From assembly GCF_053078305.1 (NCBI RefSeq), contig NZ_CP166879.1: a stretch of 64,000 nucleotides of DNA. The stretch is one strand, 5' to 3'. Of the stretch, positions 6,964-57,852 are shown one piece after another. The position numbers and the translations under genes were made by a program. The notes under the pieces are model-generated. The model made no database searches. It was given only the letters and a program-made list of their open reading frames with translations, and was not told where the DNA came from. The stretch's first letter is position 1; each line of letters begins with the position of its first letter.

Positions 6964-7066
6964 TGCCGGATGCGGCGCGAACGCCTTATCCGGCCTACAA
7001 AAGTTTGTAAATTCAATAAATTGCAGAATTCACGTAGGCCTGATAAGCGAAGCGCATCAGGCATTT
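6964..7066. repeat. REP/BIME element pair
   Basis: gccggatgcggcg...cttatccggcctac and inverted gtaggcctgataagcg...gcatcaggc motifs. Confidence 0.85.
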
Positions 7067-12042: not shown

Positions 12043-12127
12043 GTAGGCAGGATAAGGCGTTTACGCCGCATCCGGCATTTGAGCAGGATGCCTGATGCGA
12101 CGCTGATAGCGTCTTATCAGGCCTACA
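12043..12127. repeat. REP/BIME element pair
   Basis: gtaggcaggataaggcgtttacgccgcatccggca ... gcctgatgcgacgc...cttatcaggcctac. Confidence 0.85.
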
Positions 12128-20915: not shown

Positions 20916-21335
20916 GCCGGATGCGGCACAAGTGCCTTATCCGGCCTACAGGTCGGCAACAGTTGTAGGCCTGATAAGACGCGACATCGCATCAGGCATT
21001 GATTGCCGGATGCGGCACAAGTGCCTTATCCGGCCTACAGGTCGGCAACAGTTGTAGGCCTGATAAGACGCGACAGCGTCGCATCAGGCATTGATTGCCG
21101 GATGCGGCACAAGTGCCTTATCCGGCCTACAGGTCGGCAACAGTTGTAGGCCTGATAAGACGCGACAGCGTCGCATCAGGCATTGATTGCCGGATGCGGC
21201 ACAAGTGCCTTATCAGGCCTACAGGTCGGCAATAGTTGTAGGCCTGATAAGACGCGACAGCGTCGCATCAGGCATTGATTGCCGGATGCGGCACGAGTGC
21301 CTTATCCGGCCTACAGGTCGTGCATCCGACAACAC
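20916..21335. repeat. Tandem REP/BIME array, about 5 copies of a ~92-bp unit
   Basis: gccggatgcggcacaagtgccttatccggcctacaggtcggcaacagttgtaggcctgataagacgcgacagcgtcgcatcaggcattgatt recurs starting at 20916, 21005, 21097, 21189 and 21281. Confidence 0.9.
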
Positions 21336-30240: not shown

Positions 30241-30392
30241 TTAATTGCCTTATAAATATATAGATAAGAGAGTGAACATAATAAATGAAAAAAGAAAACG
30301 CCACTACACGCATTTTGTTTATAAATAAAATAATAAAATTCACGAAATGAATAAGTCCTGCAATTTAATATATATCGCAGGACTTATTTTAA

Positions 30393-31226
30393 TTAATTGC
30401 TCAAACGCTGCGGATGGGTATAAACCGTTGCCCGACCCGGTTTACAAAAACCTACCAGTGTCAAATTACAGCGCTCAGCCACTTCTACAGCAAGCGTGGT
30501 CGCGGCAGACACCGCAAACAAAATCTCTACGCCGCACATCGCCGACTTTTGCACCATTTCATAACTGGCACGACTGGAAACCAGTACCGCACCTTGCTGC
30601 CAGCTTTCCCCTTCTTGTGACCGGCGGCCTAACAGTTTGTCCAGCGCCACATGGCGACCCACGTCTTCATGCCCGCCGACCAGTTCGCCAGATGGCAACA
30701 TCCAGGCAGCGGCGTGAGTACAACCAGTCAGTTGCCCCACTGGCTGAAAATCGTTGAGATGACGTAATGCATCATCCAGTTTGTTGAGATCAAACGTCTG
30801 GGTGAACGGTAGCGGCTGCACCGGTTTTCCGATGTCATTAAGTTGCTCCACGCCGCATACGCCACAGCCCGTACGTCCCGCCAGCGCCCGGCGGCGCTCC
30901 TTCAACCCCATAAAGCGGCGGCTGGAAAGCTCAATTTGTACTTCAAGACCATTACAGGAAGGAACGACATCCATGCCGAAGATATCGCGCGGACTTTCTA
31001 TTATCCCCTCGGAAAGCGAAAAACCGAGCGCAAAGTACTCAAGGTCTTTGGGCGACGCCATCATCACCACATGCGAAATGCCGTTGTAGACCAGCGCAAC
31101 GGGAACTTCTTCCGCGACCTCATCTAACCGTGGGTGTTGTAAATCATCACGCCGCCATAACTCAATTTGACGAACACCTGTGATATTTGTCACATTTTCG
31201 ATTTCTTTTTGCTGTGTTTTTTTCAC
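30393..31226 (-). CDS. fdhD: Formate dehydrogenase sulfurtransferase/accessory protein
   Basis: 277-aa ORF recognised as FdhD; divergent from fdoG. Confidence 0.93.
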
Positions 31227-31419
31227 TTTCTCTTAACCAGATAAGAACACACACACCAACATTATGGTATTCTGTTACAAACCCTTCCTGGATGGAGGGA
31301 AATTGAGCCAATTCTGGACCTTTGCGGCCCCTTCCGCAAAGAAAAATAACTCCCACTCCCTGCACACGCAGCAAGCGAATGTAAATGGGACGTGACAATG
31401 TCGAAACAAGGAGCAATCC

Positions 31420-34400
31420 ATGCAGGTCAGCAGAAGGCAGTTCTTTAAGATCTGCGCTGGCGGTATGGCAGGCACCACGGCAGCGGCACTGGGTTTTGCA
31501 CCCAGCGTAGCACTCGCGGAAACCCGGCAGTATAAACTGCTGCGCACCCGCGAAACCCGTAATACCTGCACCTATTGTTCCGTAGGCTGTGGGCTGTTGA
31601 TGTACAGCCTCGGTGACGGAGCAAAAAACGCCAAAGCATCTATCTTCCATATCGAAGGCGATCCGGATCACCCGGTCAACCGCGGTGCACTTTGTCCGAA
31701 AGGCGCTGGCCTGGTGGATTTCATCCACTCCGAAAGCCGTCTGAAGTTTCCGGAATACCGTGCGCCAGGTTCTGATAAATGGCAGCAAATCAGTTGGGAA
31801 GAGGCGTTTGATCGCATCGCCAAACTGATGAAAGAAGACCGCGATGCTAACTACATTGCGCAAAACGCCGAAGGCGTGACTGTTAACCGCTGGCTCTCCA
31901 CCGGGATGCTGTGCGCTTCCGCGTCGAGTAACGAAACCGGCTATTTAACGCAAAAATTCTCCCGCGCGCTGGGTATGCTCGCGGTCGACAACCAGGCGCG
32001 TGTCTGACACGGACCAACGGTAGCAAGTCTTGCTCCAACATTTGGTCGCGGTGCGATGACCAACCACTGGGTCGACATCAAGAACGCCAACCTCGTCGTG
32101 GTGATGGGCGGTAACGCCGCTGAAGCTCACCCGGTCGGGTTCCGCTGGGCGATGGAAGCCAAAATTCACAATGGCGCGAAGCTGATTGTGATCGATCCTC
32201 GCTTTACGCGTACGGCTGCGGTGGCTGACTACTATGCCCCTATTCGTTCCGGTACTGACATTGCTTTCCTGTCAGGCGTATTGCTGTACCTGCTGAACAA
32301 TGAAAAATTCAACCGCGAATACACCGAAGCCTATACCAACGCCAGCCTGATCGTGCGTGAGGATTACGGCTTTGAAGATGGCCTGTTCACCGGCTACGAC
32401 GCGGAAAAACGCAAGTACGATAAATCCTCCTGGACTTACGAACTGGACGAAAACGGCTTCGCCAAACGCGATACCACGCTGCAACATCCGCGCTGCGTGT
32501 GGAACTTGCTGAAACAGCACGTTTCCCGCTACACGCCAGATGTGGTTGAAAACATCTGTGGTACGCCAAAAGACGCGTTCCTGAAAGTCTGCGAATACAT
32601 CGCAGAAACCAGTGCTCACGATAAAACTGCCTCGTTCCTGTATGCCCTCGGCTGGACGCAACACTCCGTTGGTGCGCAAAACATTCGTACGATGGCGATG
32701 ATCCAGCTGCTGCTCGGTAACATGGGGATGGCTGGCGGCGGCGTTAACGCCCTGCGCGGTCACTCCAATATTCAGGGGCTGACGGACCTGGGGCTGCTGT
32801 CGCAGAGCCTGCCAGGTTACATGACGCTGCCAAGCGAGAAGCAGACCGATCTGCAAACCTACCTTACCGCCAACACGCCAAAACCGCTGCTGGAAGGCCA
32901 GGTAAACTACTGGGGCAACTACCCGAAATTCTTCGTCTCCATGATGAAGGCCTTCTTTGGTGATAAAGCGACGGCGGAAAATAGCTGGGGCTTTGACTGG
33001 TTGCCGAAGTGGGATAAAGGCTACGACGTCCTGCAATACTTCGAGATGATGAAAGAGGGCAAGGTCAATGGCTATATCTGCCAGGGCTTTAACCCTGTTG
33101 CCTCATTCCCGAACAAAAACAAAGTGATCGGTTGTCTGTCGAAACTGAAGTTCCTCGTCACCATCGACCCGCTGAACACTGAAACCTCTAACTTCTGGCA
33201 GAACCACGGTGAGCTGAACGAAGTTGACTCGTCGAAGATCCAGACCGAAGTGTTCCGTCTGCCATCGACCTGCTTCGCGGAAGAGAACGGTTCTATCGTT
33301 AACTCAGGTCGCTGGTTACAGTGGCACTGGAAAGGTGCGGACGCCCCGGGGATTGCGCTGACTGACGGCGAGATCCTCTCCGGTATCTTCCTGCGCTTGC
33401 GCAAGATGTATGCCGAACAGGGTGGCGCGAACCCGGACCAGGTGCTGAACATGACCTGGAACTACGCCATTCCGCATGAGCCGAAGTCGGAAGAAGTAGC
33501 GATGGAGAGCAACGGTAAGGCGCTGGCCGATATTACCGATCCGGCAACCGGTGCGGTTATCGTCAAGAAAGGCCAACAACTTAGCTCGTTCGCCCAATTG
33601 CGCGATGACGGTACAACCTCCTGTGGCTGCTGGATTTTCGCCGGTAGCTGGACGCCGGAAGGCAACCAGATGGCACGCCGTGATAACGCCGATCCGTCTG
33701 GCCTCGGTAACACGCTGGGCTGGGCATGGGCATGGCCGCTTAACCGCCGCATTCTGTATAACCGCGCCTCCGCAGATCCGCAGGGTAACCCGTGGGATCC
33801 GAAGCGTCAGTTGCTGAAATGGGACGGCACTAAGTGGACCGGCTGGGATATTCCGGACTACAGCGCAGCGCCTCCGGGTAGCGGCGTCGGGCCGTTTATC
33901 ATGCAGCAGGAAGGCATGGGGCGTCTGTTTGCCCTCGATAAGATGGCGGAAGGTCCGTTCCCGGAACACTACGAGCCGTTTGAAACGCCGCTGGGAACTA
34001 ACCCGCTGCATCCAAACGTTATCTCGAACCCGGCTGCACGTATCTTTAAAGACGATGCCGAAGCATTGGGTAAAGCCGATAAGTTCCCGTATGTCGGAAC
34101 CACCTATCGTCTGACCGAGCACTTCCACTACTGGACCAAACACGCGCTGTTGAACGCGATTTTGCAGCCAGAGCAGTTTGTGGAAATCGGGGAGTCGCTG
34201 GCGAATAAACTTGGCATTGCCCAGGGCGATACCGTGAAAGTCTCCTCCAACCGTGGCTATATCAAAGCCAAAGCGGTGGTGACCAAACGTATTCGCACGC
34301 TGAAAGCGAACGGCAAAGATATCGATACCATCGGTATTCCGATTCACTGGGGCTATGAAGGCGTAGCTAAAAAAGGCTTTATTGCCAATACGTTAACGCC

Positions 34401-34470
34401 ATTCGTTGGTGATGCAAACACGCAGACGCCGGAGTTTAAGTCCTTCCTTGTGAATGTGGAAAAGGTGTAA
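31420..34470 (+). CDS. fdoG: Formate dehydrogenase-O major subunit (selenocysteine-containing)
   Basis: Two same-frame track ORFs (31420..32007 and 32056..34470) joined across in-frame TGA at 32005..32007, read as Sec196; Tat signal RRQFFK; total 1016 aa. Confidence 0.95.
32005..32050 (+). promoter_or_regulatory. Selenocysteine UGA codon plus downstream SECIS region
   Basis: In-frame UGA followed by a region with stem potential (agcaag..cttgct); bacterial SECIS lies immediately 3' of the UGA. Confidence 0.6.
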
Positions 34471-34482
34471 CGGAGACGACAT

Positions 34483-35385
34483 ATGGCTTATCAATCGCAA
34501 GATATCATTCGTCGTTCCGCGACTAACGGTCTGACCCCCGCGCCTCAGGCGCGGGACTTCCAGGAAGAAGTGGCGAAACTCATCGACGTCACCACCTGTA
34601 TCGGCTGTAAAGCCTGTCAGGTGGCGTGTTCAGAGTGGAACGACATTCGCGATACCGTCGGCAATAACATTGGGGTGTACGACAACCCCAATGATTTAAG
34701 TGCCAAATCGTGGACGGTGATGCGCTTCTCGGAAGTGGAGCAGAACGACAAACTGGAATGGCTGATCCGCAAAGACGGCTGTATGCACTGTTCCGATCCA
34801 GGCTGTCTGAAAGCGTGCCCGGCGGAAGGTGCAATTATTCAGTATGCCAACGGTATCGTCGACTTCCAGTCCGAGCAGTGCATTGGCTGCGGTTATTGCA
34901 TTGCGGGCTGTCCGTTCGACATTCCGCGCCTCAACCCGGAAGACAACCGCGTCTACAAATGTACGCTGTGCGTTGACCGCGTGGTGGTTGGGCAAGAACC
35001 AGCCTGCGTGAAGACCTGCCCAACGGGCGCGATTCACTTCGGTACGAAAGAGTCGATGAAAACGCTGGCGAGCGAGCGCGTGGCGGAGCTGAAAACCCGC
35101 GGTTACGACAATGCGGGCCTGTACGATCCGGCAGGCGTCGGTGGTACACACGTTATGTACGTGCTGCACCATGCTGACAAGCCAAATCTGTATCATGGCT
35201 TGCCGGAGAACCCGGAAATCAGCGAAACCGTGAAATTCTGGAAAGGCATCTGGAAACCGCTCGCAGCTGTTGGCTTTGCGGCTACCTTCGCAGCCAGTAT
35301 CTTCCACTACGTGGGTGTCGGTCCGAACCGTGCGGATGAGGAAGAGAATAATCTGCACGAAGAGAAAGACGAGGAGCGCAAATGA
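34483..35385 (+). CDS. fdoH: Formate dehydrogenase-O iron-sulfur subunit
   Basis: 300-aa ORF with four Cys-rich ferredoxin-type motifs. Confidence 0.95.
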
Positions 35386-36017
35386 AACGACGTGACACCA
35401 TCGTGCGCTACACCGCGCCGGAACGTATCAACCACTGGATCACCGCCTTCTGCTTCATCCTGGCGGCGGTGAGCGGGCTGGGCTTTTTGTTCCCGTCCTT
35501 CAACTGGTTGATGCAAATCATGGGCACACCGCAGCTGGCGCGAATTCTGCACCCGTTTGTCGGCGTGGTTATGTTTGCCTCGTTCATCATCATGTTTTTC
35601 CGTTACTGGCATCACAACCTAATCAATCGGGATGATATCTTTTGGGCGAAGAATATTCGTAAGATCGTCGTCAACGAGGAAGTAGGTGACACCGGGCGTT
35701 ATAACTTCGGTCAGAAATGCGTTTTCTGGGCGGCGATTATTTTCCTGGTTCTGCTGCTGGTGAGCGGCGTGATTATCTGGCGTCCTTATTTTGCGCCTGC
35801 TTTCTCAATCCCGGTGATCCGATTCGCGTTAATGCTGCATTCATTTGCCGCAGTGGCGTTAATTGTGGTTATCATGGTGCATATCTACGCCGCCCTTTGG
35901 GTGAAAGGCACGATTACCGCCATGGTGGAAGGATGGGTTACCAGCGCCTGGGCGAAGAAACATCACCCGCGCTGGTACCGTGAGGTCCGCAAGACAACGG
36001 AAAAGAAAGCTGAATGA
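35382..36017 (+). CDS. fdoI: Formate dehydrogenase-O cytochrome b556 subunit
   Basis: 211-aa membrane ORF overlapping fdoH stop. Confidence 0.95.
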
Positions 36018-36943
36018 GTATTCGCATAATCCCGCAAGATGAGCTGGGTTCGAGCGAGAAACGTACGGCGGATATGATTCCGCCGTTATTGTTCCCTCGG
36101 CTCAAGAATTTATACAACCGCCGCGCCGAGCGTCTGCGCGAGTTGGCAGAAAATAATCCGCTGGGTGATTACCTGCGCTTTGCTGCGCTTATCGCCCACG
36201 CCCAGGAAGTGGTGCTGTACGACCATCCGCTGGAGATGGATCTGACTGCACGCATTAAAGAAGCCAGCGCACAAGGCAAGCCCCCGCTGGATATTCACGT
36301 TCTGCCGCGTGATAAGCACTGGCAAAAGCTGCTGATGGCGCTAATTGCTGAGCTGAAACCTGAAATGAGCGGCCCGGCGCTGGCAGTGATTGAGAATCTG
36401 GAGAAGGCATCGACTCAGGAGCTGGAAGATATGGCCAGCGCACTGTTTGCCTCTGATTTCTCATCCGTCAGTAGCGATAAAGCGCCGTTTATCTGGGCTG
36501 CACTGTCGCTCTACTGGGCGCAGATGGCCAATCTGATCCCCGGCAAAGCCCGCGCTGAATACGGCGAACAACGTCAATATTGCCCGGTATGTGGCTCTAT
36601 GCCGGTGTCCAGCATGGTGCAAATTGGCACCACTCAGGGGCTACGTTACCTGCACTGCAACCTGTGTGAAACTGAATGGCACGTTGTGCGCGTAAAATGC
36701 AGCAACTGCGAGCAGAGCGGCAAACTGCATTACTGGTCGCTGGATGACGAACAGGCCGCGATTAAAGCCGAAAGCTGCGATGACTGCGGCACTTACCTGA
36801 AAATTCTCTATCAGGAAAAAGAACCGAAAGTTGAAGCCGTAGCAGATGACCTCGCCTCTCTGGTACTGGACGCACGAATGGAGCAAGAAGGCTATGCCCG
36901 CAGTTCCATCAACCCGTTCCTGTTTCCGGGTGAAGGGGAGTAA
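36014..36943 (+). CDS. fdhE: Formate dehydrogenase formation protein
   Basis: 309-aa ORF with paired CxxC motifs. Confidence 0.93.
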
Positions 36944-55612: not shown

Positions 55613-55828
55613 TGTTTAATCCTTTTGGTTTAAACCAGATGAAGCATCTTACGCTTACGCCAAAAAAGAAAGCAATTAACGGTGTATGACTTTGCAGATA
55701 ATTGTGACAAAGCTCTCTATTGACGTAATCACAGACTTATAAGGGAGATACTCGCATTGGTGTGCGCTCACGACAGGTAAAAAAAAACCTGCCAGCGATG
55801 GCAGGTTTTTTATAACTAAAAAACGAAA

Positions 55829-57652
55829 TTAATCGTCTTTCGGTGCGCGGTTGGCGCGGCGACGATCGTTTTCCGTCAGGTGACGTTTACGAATACGGAT
55901 AGAGGTCGGAGTCACTTCTACCAGTTCGTCATCATCGATGAACTCCAGAGCTTGTTCCAGAGTCATGCGGATAGGCGGAACCAGAACAACGGCTTCGTCA
56001 GTACCGGAAGCACGCATGTTGGTCAGTTTCTTACCGGTCAGGCAGTTTACAGTCAGGTCGTTAGAGCGGCTATGAATACCGATAATCTGACCTTCGTAAA
56101 CTTCTGCACCGTGACCGAGGAACAGCTTACCGCGATCCTGCAGACCGAACAGCGCGAACGCGACCGCTTTACCCTGACCGTTAGAGATCAGTACACCGTT
56201 CTGACGCTGACCCACTTCGCCCGGACGTACGTCGTCGTAGTGGCTGAAGGTGGAGTACAGCAGACCCGTACCGGAAGTCATGGTCATGAACTCAGAACGG
56301 AAGCCAATCAGACCACGGCTTGGAATCACGTAGTCGAGACGTACGCGGCCTTTACCGTCTGGATTCATGTTTTTCAGGTCGCCTTTACGTTCGCCCAGCG
56401 CCTGCATTACAGAACCCTGATGCTGTTCTTCAACGTCCAGAGTCACGTTTTCATACGGCTCTTGTTTACGACCGTCGATTTCACGGAAGATAACTTTCGG
56501 ACGGGATACCGCCAGTTCGAAACCTTCACGACGCATGTTTTCGATCAGAACAGACAGGTGTAGTTCGCCACGACCAGAAACGCGGAACGCATCAGCGTCT
56601 TCGGTTTCTTCTACGCGCAGCGCAACGTTGTGTACCAGTTCTTTGTTCAGACGATCCAGGATCTGACGAGACGTTACGAACTTACCTTCTTTACCGCAGA
56701 ACGGCGAGGTGTTAACGCAGAAGAACATAGAAACGGTCGGCTCATCAACGGAGAGTGCCGGCAGCGCTTCAACGTTTTGCGTGTCGCAAACGGTGTCAGA
56801 AATGTTCAGTTCGCCCAGGCCCGTGATCGCCACGATATCGCCAGCTTCCGCCAGATCGGTTTCGATACGTTCCAGACCGAGGTGGCCCAGCACTTTACCG
56901 ACTTTCGCGTTACGGGTTTTGCCTTCGCTATCGATGATAGTGACCTGCTGGTTCGGCTTCACTTTACCGCGCTTGATGCGGCCAATGCCGATAACGCCAA
57001 CATAGCTGTTGTAATCGAGCTGAGAAATCTGCATCTGGAACGGACCGTCAAGGTCAACGTCCGGCGCAGGAACGTGATCAACAATCGCCTGATACAGCGG
57101 GGTCATGTCTTCCGCCATATCTTCGTGGTCCAGACCCGCGATACCGTTCAGCGCAGAAGCGTAAACGATCGGGAAGTCCAGCTGCTCGTCGGTCGCGTCG
57201 AGGTTAACGAACAGATCGAATACCTGATCCACAACCCAATCAGGACGCGCGCCAGGGCGGTCAACTTTGTTGATAACAACAATCGGCTTCAGGCCGTAAG
57301 CAAACGCTTTTTTGGTTACGAAGCGCGTTTGCGGCATCGGGCCGTCAAATGCGTCAACCACCAGCAGCACTGAGTCTACCATGGACATTACACGTTCAAC
57401 TTCACCACCGAAGTCGGCGTGCCCCGGGGTATCAACGATGTTGATACGGTAATCATTCCATTTGATAGCGGTGTTTTTCGCGAGGATGGTAATCCCACGC
57501 TCTTTCTCCAAATCGTTGGAGTCCATCACGCGCTCTTGGGTTTCGGCACGAGAGTCGAACGTACCGGATTGTTGGAGCAGCTTGTCTACCAGGGTGGTTT
57601 TACCATGGTCTACGTGCGCGATGATGGCGATATTACGCAATTTTTCGATCAC
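55829..57652 (-). CDS. typA: Ribosome-binding translational GTPase BipA/TypA
   Basis: 607-aa ORF with G-domain motifs AHVDHGKTT and DTPGH. Confidence 0.97.
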
Positions 57653-57803
57653 AACTTTGCCTCAGGCATTAGAAATAGCGCGTTATTGTACACGGATTAA
57701 TCGCACTACAAAACAGGATCACAAACATCCTCCGCAAACAAGTATTGCAGAGTCCCTTTGTGATCGCTTTCACGGAGCATAAAAAGGGTTATCCAAAGGT
57801 CAT

Positions 57804-57852
57804 TGCACCAATATGGTGCTTAATGTTTCCATTGAAGCACTATATTGGTGCA
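57804..57852. promoter_or_regulatory. NtrC (GlnG) enhancer binding sites upstream of glnA
   Basis: Two TGCACCA-N3-TGGTGCA-like palindromes (tgcaccaatatggtgct and agcactatattggtgca). Confidence 0.75.

Follow-up and report, generated by a model that had tools for sequence, protein, structure and literature searches.

The in-frame UGA at codon 196 of Escherichia coli fdoG and its SECIS element

The TGA at positions 32005-32007 of the window (the whole 64-kb stretch of DNA that was analysed) is codon 196 of Escherichia coli fdoG and is decoded, with a probability that we put at about 97%, as selenocysteine (Sec) rather than as a stop. The initial annotation had already assigned this TGA to Sec196 of formate dehydrogenase-O (FDH-O), an assignment borne out by a match to the SECIS_3 model of bacterial SECIS elements, by residue 196 of the solved paralogue in PDB entry 1KQF and by 99.3% nucleotide identity to fdoG of strain K-12 (b3894). 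The Sec196 codon and its SECIS are already known, functional and ordinary. The evidence comprises gene identity, reading frame, RNA structure, and conservation among relatives.

Gene identity and reading frame

The gene is identified as fdoG rather than fdnG by its identity to b3894, by the synteny of fdhD, fdoGHI and fdhE, and by a gamma subunit that passes the FdoI model but not the FdnI model (Table 1). Of its 3051 nt, 21 differ from K-12 fdoG, whereas the identity of the gene to fdnG is 75% at the nucleotide and 77% at the amino acid level. The gene order, with fdhD divergent from fdoG-fdoH-fdoI-fdhE, is that found around b3894 in K-12 MG1655; yiiG and frvR lie further upstream in RefSeq and are the same neighbours as in K-12. 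The alpha-subunit gene stands in an operon with genes for the beta (fdoH) and gamma (fdoI) subunits, both of which score past their NCBIfam cut-offs, and the fdoI product reaches only 243.6 bits with the FdnI model NF007558, under its cut-off of 339. FdoG matches NCBIfam TIGR01553 over residues 2-1015 with 1572.2 bits (cut-off 814.2). With 31200-34600 as megablast query, 5425 complete E. coli genomes out of 5426 have the region, several at 100% identity.

The paralogue fdnG of K-12 (b1474, FDH-N) also has TGA at codon 196. It differs from fdoG in its locus (yddG-fdnGHI-yddM), in a gamma subunit of another family, and in having 75% nucleotide identity outside the SECIS block. Expression of fdnG is nitrate-inducible and anaerobic, and fdo is expressed aerobically or constitutively. 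The fdo locus is reportedly described by Plunkett et al. in 1993 and Abaibou et al. in 1995. RefSeq/PGAP names the gene in the window "fdnG, formate dehydrogenase-N subunit alpha", a label that arises because one equivalog model spans both paralogues.

Table 1. Features of the fdo region, in window coordinates
Feature	Position	Strand	Basis or remark
fdhD, divergent accessory sulfurtransferase needed for FDH maturation	30393..31226	-	TIGR00129, 340 bits (cut-off 140.9)
fdoG, formate dehydrogenase-O alpha (catalytic) subunit, complete CDS	31420..34470	+	1016 codons including Sec196
Predicted Tat (twin-arginine) signal peptide of FdoG, MQVSRRQFFKICAGGMAGTTAAALGFAPSVALA	31420..31518	+	Motifs in translation
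Bacterial SECIS, full Rfam SECIS_3 (RF01989) match	32002..32060	+	Base-paired part 32008-32050
UGA codon 196, probably recoded as selenocysteine, predicted Mo-ligand residue	32005..32007	+	1KQF alignment, SECIS_3 register, TGA in relatives
Apical mini-hairpin GGUAGCAAGUCUUGCUCC, presumed SelB-binding part	32019..32036	+	Folding, covariation
fdoH, beta (Fe-S) subunit	34483..35385	+	TIGR01582, 478.7 bits (cut-off 334.7)
fdoI, gamma (cytochrome b556) subunit	35382..36017	+	NF007924 (FdoI type), 453 bits (cut-off 341)
fdhE, formate dehydrogenase accessory protein	36014..36943	+	NF002925, 604 bits (cut-off 426)

Translated in one frame, fdoG has 1016 sense codons and ends in TAA at 34468-34470; codon 196 is its sole internal stop. 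The internal TGA lies in the context CGT GTC TGA CAC GGA, and the translation across it reads DNQARV*HGPTVASLAPTFGRGAMTNHW. The list of open reading frames (ORFs) breaks the gene into 31420..32007 (plus strand, 195 aa, ending in TGA) and 32056..34470 (plus strand, 804 aa), which both start at 1 mod 3 and therefore share a frame. ORF list and translation thus confirm the initial description of two same-frame pieces of 195 and 804 aa split by one TGA. The 48 nt from the TGA to the ATG at 32056 (16 codons, HGPTVASLAPTFGRGA) are open, so a single TGA is the only break in the fdoG frame; the hole between the two pieces exists because the ORF lister resumes at the first ATG. At the N-terminus, an SRRQFFK motif and an ALA cleavage-type motif are visible in the translation, and we take this segment to be a Tat signal from general knowledge of FdnG and FdoG export.

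Pieces of precisely 195 and 804 aa are what a naive ORF list gives, and would be expected if the TGA were a true stop, with fdoG either a pseudogene or a split gene whose second part is re-initiated at ATG 32056; this reading has no other support. Past codon 196, the window and K-12 differ by 17 synonymous codons and 1 non-synonymous codon, from which it follows that the part of fdoG downstream of the TGA is translated. Its reading frame is under purifying selection. Third positions account for 19 of the 21 nucleotide differences in the gene, and the single amino acid difference is K689 in the window, where K-12 has S. The protein sequence of the 16 codons that separate the TGA from the ATG is conserved in at least 119 loci, spread over many genera. 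The TGA itself is fixed in E. coli and occurs in 120 of 120 listed orthologous or paralogous loci, an above-threshold SECIS is present, and the solved paralogue forms a single chain that has Sec at residue 196. Neither relaxed downstream constraint nor an unconserved stop nor a missing recoding signal was found in fdoG. A true stop is therefore exceedingly improbable, and the initial view that fdoG is no pseudogene stands.

FdoG aligns over residues 1-1015 with 1KQF chain A (FdnG), and residue 196 of 1KQF, a non-standard X (Sec), falls on codon 196 of fdoG. Both proteins have the motif DNQARVxHGPTVASLAPTFGRGAMTNHW. An alignment to the FdnG selenoprotein, which the initial annotation had suggested as a check, is thus obtained end to end with Sec on the TGA codon.

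SECIS element downstream of the UGA

A SECIS hairpin was also expected directly 3' of the UGA, and one is found there. The element matches Rfam SECIS_3 with 84.3 bits against a gathering threshold of 63, covers model positions 1-59 of 59 without indels, and places the fdoG TGA on the UGA of the model (positions 4-6). The E-value is 8.9e-20 when 4 kb are searched and 1.4e-18 when the whole window is, and the match is the sole SECIS that the Rfam search returned in the window. The fdhF-type model (SECIS_2, RF01988) gives just 28.1 bits against a gathering threshold of 70, so its type is SECIS_3 (fdnG/fdoG).

The apical hairpin folds as ((.(((((...))))))) with -4.5 kcal/mol (z = -2.06). Counted from the U of the UGA, its bulged U at 32021 is U17, and G23 and U24 of the loop are at 32027-32028. 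Work by Hüttenhofer et al. in 1996, Liu et al. in 1998 and Fourmy et al. in 2002 is said to have established that SelB recognises the bulged U together with the GU of the loop, and that the upper hairpin of 17-18 nt reportedly suffices at the correct distance from the UGA. The bulges discussed in PMC7590224 concern tRNA engineering, not the SECIS bulged U.

Outside the fdnG/fdoG type, the reference bacterial SECIS is that of fdhF. In K-12, fdhF has an in-frame TGA as codon 140 and scores 87.1 bits with SECIS_2 next to that codon, and its product is the cytoplasmic 715-aa FDH-H with Sec140, unlike FdoG. Both hairpins follow directly after the UGA, their first 8 nt past the UGA are alike (UGACACGG), and in each the bulged U lies at +17, with G at +23 and U at +24 in the loop. 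They differ in that the apical stem of fdoG has an extra base pair or, put otherwise, a smaller loop (GUC versus GGUC), in an A-U pair in fdoG where fdhF has U-A, and in their lower stems.

Thermodynamic stability of the fdoG hairpin alone is unremarkable. Folding z-scores against dinucleotide shuffles are -0.45 for 32005-32060 and -1.45 for 32005-32053; the established fdhF SECIS scores no better in the same test (z = -0.54), so folding energy is uninformative for this class of element. ViennaRNA favours a lower-stem register shifted by one relative to Rfam. Separately, a sub-threshold match to FdoG1_thermometer lies upstream, with a folding z-score of -0.49.

Conservation and covariation among relatives

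Relatives were collected with a degenerate DNA pattern for R-V-(TGA/TGC/TGT)-H-G-P-T-V-A (CGNGTNTGHCAYGGNCCNACNGTNGC), applied to one genome per species in about 100,000 species. Although the pattern tolerates TGA, TGC and TGT, TGA occupies the position in 120 of the 120 matches listed (at least 120 loci), and Cys codons (TGC or TGT) at position 196 are found in none of these 120. The formate dehydrogenase context DNQARV*HGPTVA(S/G)LAP(T/S)(F/Y)GRGAMTN is present in 119 of the 120 matches listed, and the other, from Streptomyces, is a chance pattern match lacking this context and was left out. The listed loci span Gamma-, Beta- and Alphaproteobacteria, Desulfuromonadales/Geobacterales, Terriglobia and one actinomycete MAG. 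Because the scan demanded the RV-x-HGPTVA motif, it covers close, motif-sharing relatives and would pass over any Cys-type homologues with other flanks; it shows only that such close relatives of fdoG appear to use TGA, among the matches listed. The initial annotation had held that Cys orthologues combined with the lack of a SECIS-like structure would make the TGA a true stop; what emerged is TGA in every listed match, and a SECIS.

The listed loci together with the window give 68 distinct 59-mers, from which covariation was assessed. The apical helix is 99.8% paired on the Rfam structure in these 68 variants among the matches listed, where the search pattern itself fixed most columns of the 5' arm and left the 3' arm and columns 18, 21 and 24-25 free. 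Pair 21-33 occurs as G-C in 52 variants, A-U in 11 and G-U in 5, and pair 24-30 as A-U in 47, C-G in 17 and G-C in 4 with none unpaired; double changes at two apical pairs fill 32 cells (all counts for the 68 variants among the matches listed). The columns of these two pairs are third positions of Val/Ala and Ala/Leu codons, where the compensatory changes are synonymous, so protein constraint cannot explain them. Column shuffles equalled the observed pairing or covariation in 0 of 500 trials, sliding the 3' partners by 1-3 columns lowered pairing to only 26-49%, and the RNAalifold consensus independently gives the same apical helix. The lower stem is more weakly supported than the apical helix, at 86% paired in the variants among the matches listed, and two of its column pairs in the Rfam register, 8-48 and 12-44, are non-standard in the enterobacterial variant. 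Alignment positions G26 and U27 of the loop are invariant in the 68 variants among the matches listed, though U27 is a synonymous third position.

Conservation of the nucleotide sequence itself is pronounced close to the UGA. Of 5433 matching E. coli records, 5316 have exactly the same 96 nt round the TGA, and the exact fdoG 59-mer recurs in at least 25 loci of other Enterobacterales from about ten genera, including Photorhabdus, Yersinia, Providencia, Citrobacter, Enterobacter, Klebsiella and Superficieibacter as well as E. albertii. An assembly or sequencing error as the source of the TGA would not produce the same sequence in thousands of independent records and in other enterobacterial genera, and we dismiss it outright; the count in E. 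coli records and the whole-window SECIS_3 E-value together mean that neither chance nor sequencing error accounts for the element.

K-12 fdoG is the same gene with TGA at codon 196 and an identical SECIS region; the differences amount to strain-level polymorphism only, and none of the 21 lies in 32002-32072. The SECIS_3 59-mer of fdnG is identical to that of fdoG. The longest identical run between the two genes is 71 nt, flanks included, and starts at 32002, and their synonymous codons match in 20 of 20 cases within codons 195-215 compared with 57% elsewhere. In 24 of the 25 listed 59-mer loci (those with enough flank), identity to the window over the surrounding 390 nt is only 77-95%. Upstream, at codon 194, and downstream, at codon 218, codon identity in the listed 59-mer loci drops sharply to about 50%; codons 195-214 are identical in this subset by the way it was chosen, so the informative features are the sharp edges and codons 214-217. 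Near-invariance reaches codon 217, about 10-20 nt past the modelled SECIS stem.

This freeze of synonymous sites may be broader than the SelB-binding apical hairpin requires, and could reflect extra constraint outside the current SECIS model or gene conversion, a suggestion that we consider unlikely and offer tentatively. As candidate causes, the lower stem and 3' flank could be needed to position the ribosome or SelB, or fdnG and fdoG could undergo recurrent gene conversion limited to the 71-nt block.

Selenocysteine decoding and its meaning for annotation

Decoding of the UGA as selenocysteine would proceed in fdoG as it does in the SelB/SECIS mechanism generally. The SECIS hairpin would form in the mRNA directly 3' of the UGA, and SelB, a specialised elongation factor carrying GTP and Sec-tRNA(Sec), would bind its apical loop and bulged U. 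With the UGA in the ribosomal A site, SelB would compete with release factor 2 (RF2) and supply the tRNA to this codon, and translation would go on to yield a precursor of 1016 residues. After predicted export by the Tat route, FdoG would join FdoH and FdoI in the membrane-bound formate dehydrogenase-O, with Sec196 as a probable ligand of the molybdenum of the bis-MGD cofactor. SelB binding, RF2 competition, selenium incorporation and the Mo-ligand role are what we infer for FdoG itself from existing knowledge. Decoding of UGA against RF2 by SelB-GTP-Sec-tRNA(Sec) on the apical hairpin is described in PMC8124441, which also states that FDH-O carries a catalytic Sec, and in each of the three FDH catalytic subunits of E. 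coli, bis-MGD is coordinated through a selenocysteine (PMC6239281). A bioRxiv preprint (10.64898/2026.03.03.709296) mentions the E. coli fdhF and fdnG SECIS structures.

The K-12 selB gene was found in all but one of 5426 E. coli genomes. This count, 5425, equals that for the fdoG TGA region, so the presence of selB in the source strain can safely be assumed. The primary demonstration for fdnG is said to be that of Berg et al. in 1991, and a third Se-containing FDH was reportedly described by Sawers et al. in the same year.

The fdoG UGA is followed by C, and UGAC is a weak context for RF2; in E. coli, UGA is also read through at a low level independently of Sec. The fdoG UGA could accordingly be read mainly by near-cognate tRNAs that insert Trp or Cys, with the hairpin just slowing termination. 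Against this stand the fit of the hairpin to a SelB-type SECIS model with its bulged U and loop GU at the fdhF distances, the invariance of loop G26 and U27 among the listed variants despite U27 being synonymous, the near-universal co-occurrence of selB, and Sec at position 196 in the crystal structure of the paralogue. The Sec ligand in all three E. coli FDHs (PMC6239281) also opposes it. None of the present results suggests such decoding as the main route, and we regard it as very improbable for the bulk of the product; a minor share of Sec-independent read-through may occur at the fdoG UGA.

In practice, selenocysteine decoding matters for annotation. The initial expectation that automated annotation would miscall the TGA is right for naive ORF callers and wrong for current RefSeq, where PGAP gives the equivalent stretch as a single 3051-nt CDS. 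In the output of plain ORF callers, 31420-32007 and 32008-34470 should be merged into one CDS with a Sec translation exception at the TGA. Small extras to the known picture are the 71-nt block shared by fdoG and fdnG and the RefSeq naming of the gene as fdnG. The fdoG TGA is a textbook case of SECIS- and SelB-dependent UGA recoding in one of the three selenoproteins of E. coli, and the existing picture of these enzymes is unchanged.

Sequence identity around the selenocysteine codon

The fdoG sequence and its paralogue fdnG share a block of 71 nt with 100% identity (window 32002-32072), which is the longest identical run between genes that are 75% identical overall. Synonymous sites in other Enterobacterales are nearly invariant up to codon 217 (~32070), after which invariance drops sharply, and this near-invariance extends ~10-20 nt past the modelled SECIS stem. 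Codon bias, an additional RNA constraint or gene conversion may have produced the identical block and the extended synonymous invariance.

RNA-family matches in the window

Matches to RNA families are listed in the table. In the fdoG 5' region, the candidate thermometer aligns well only around the Shine-Dalgarno/start region and over the first codons of the gene. Codons 8-10 are paired with AAGGAGC in the minimum-energy fold of this region; the stability of the fold does not exceed that of shuffled sequences (z = -0.49). Matches to naRNA4 score 64-79 bits and are ordinary E. coli intergenic repeats.

Rfam family matches in the window
Feature	Coordinates	Strand	Score
RF02778, FdoG-1 5' UTR thermometer (sub-threshold)	31251-31449	+	32 bits (gathering 50)
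naRNA4 (REP/BIME-type repeat)	12046-12123	+	above gathering
naRNA4 (REP/BIME-type repeat), four tandem copies	20968-21311	-	above gathering
ES222 (sRNA family)	57734-57841	-	133 bits, above gathering
STnc370 (sRNA family)	55776-55844	-	54.9 bits, just over gathering 54
ES036/CssrF (sRNA family)	7000-7041	+	44.6 bits, above gathering

Gene naming and plasmid-labelled copies

RefSeq/PGAP names the gene at 31420-34470 "fdnG, formate dehydrogenase-N subunit alpha" despite its location in the fdo operon. RefSeq records carry this name for the gene adjoining fdoH and fdoI (e.g., NZ_CP133871.1 149809-152859, which corresponds to window 31420-34470), and a single equivalog model, NCBIfam TIGR01553, covers both paralogues. 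The "fdnG" label on the fdo-operon gene is a systematic naming quirk with no biological difference. A copy of fdnG with the same TGA and SECIS as in the window also occurs at NZ_JBYVFY010000003.1 392616-392911, on a 504-kb E. coli replicon with the record label "plasmid pckj3_1_3". Plasmid-labelled records account for 7 of ~10,830 matched places in total and may be chromosome fragments or chromids that carry a plasmid label.

Strain differences and genomes without a match

Strain ES5 is 100% identical to the window apart from a 2-nt offset in the coordinates of yiiG and frvR, upstream of fdhD. This offset implies that the intergenic region between yiiG and fdhD (window ~30242-30393) differs by a 2-bp indel. 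Across the 5426 E. coli genomes in the collection, exactly one has no match to the fdoG region, exactly one has none to the 96-mer spanning the TGA and SECIS, and exactly one has none to selB. If the same genome lacks the fdoG region, the 96-mer and selB, it would represent a joint loss of formate dehydrogenase genes and the selenocysteine machinery.
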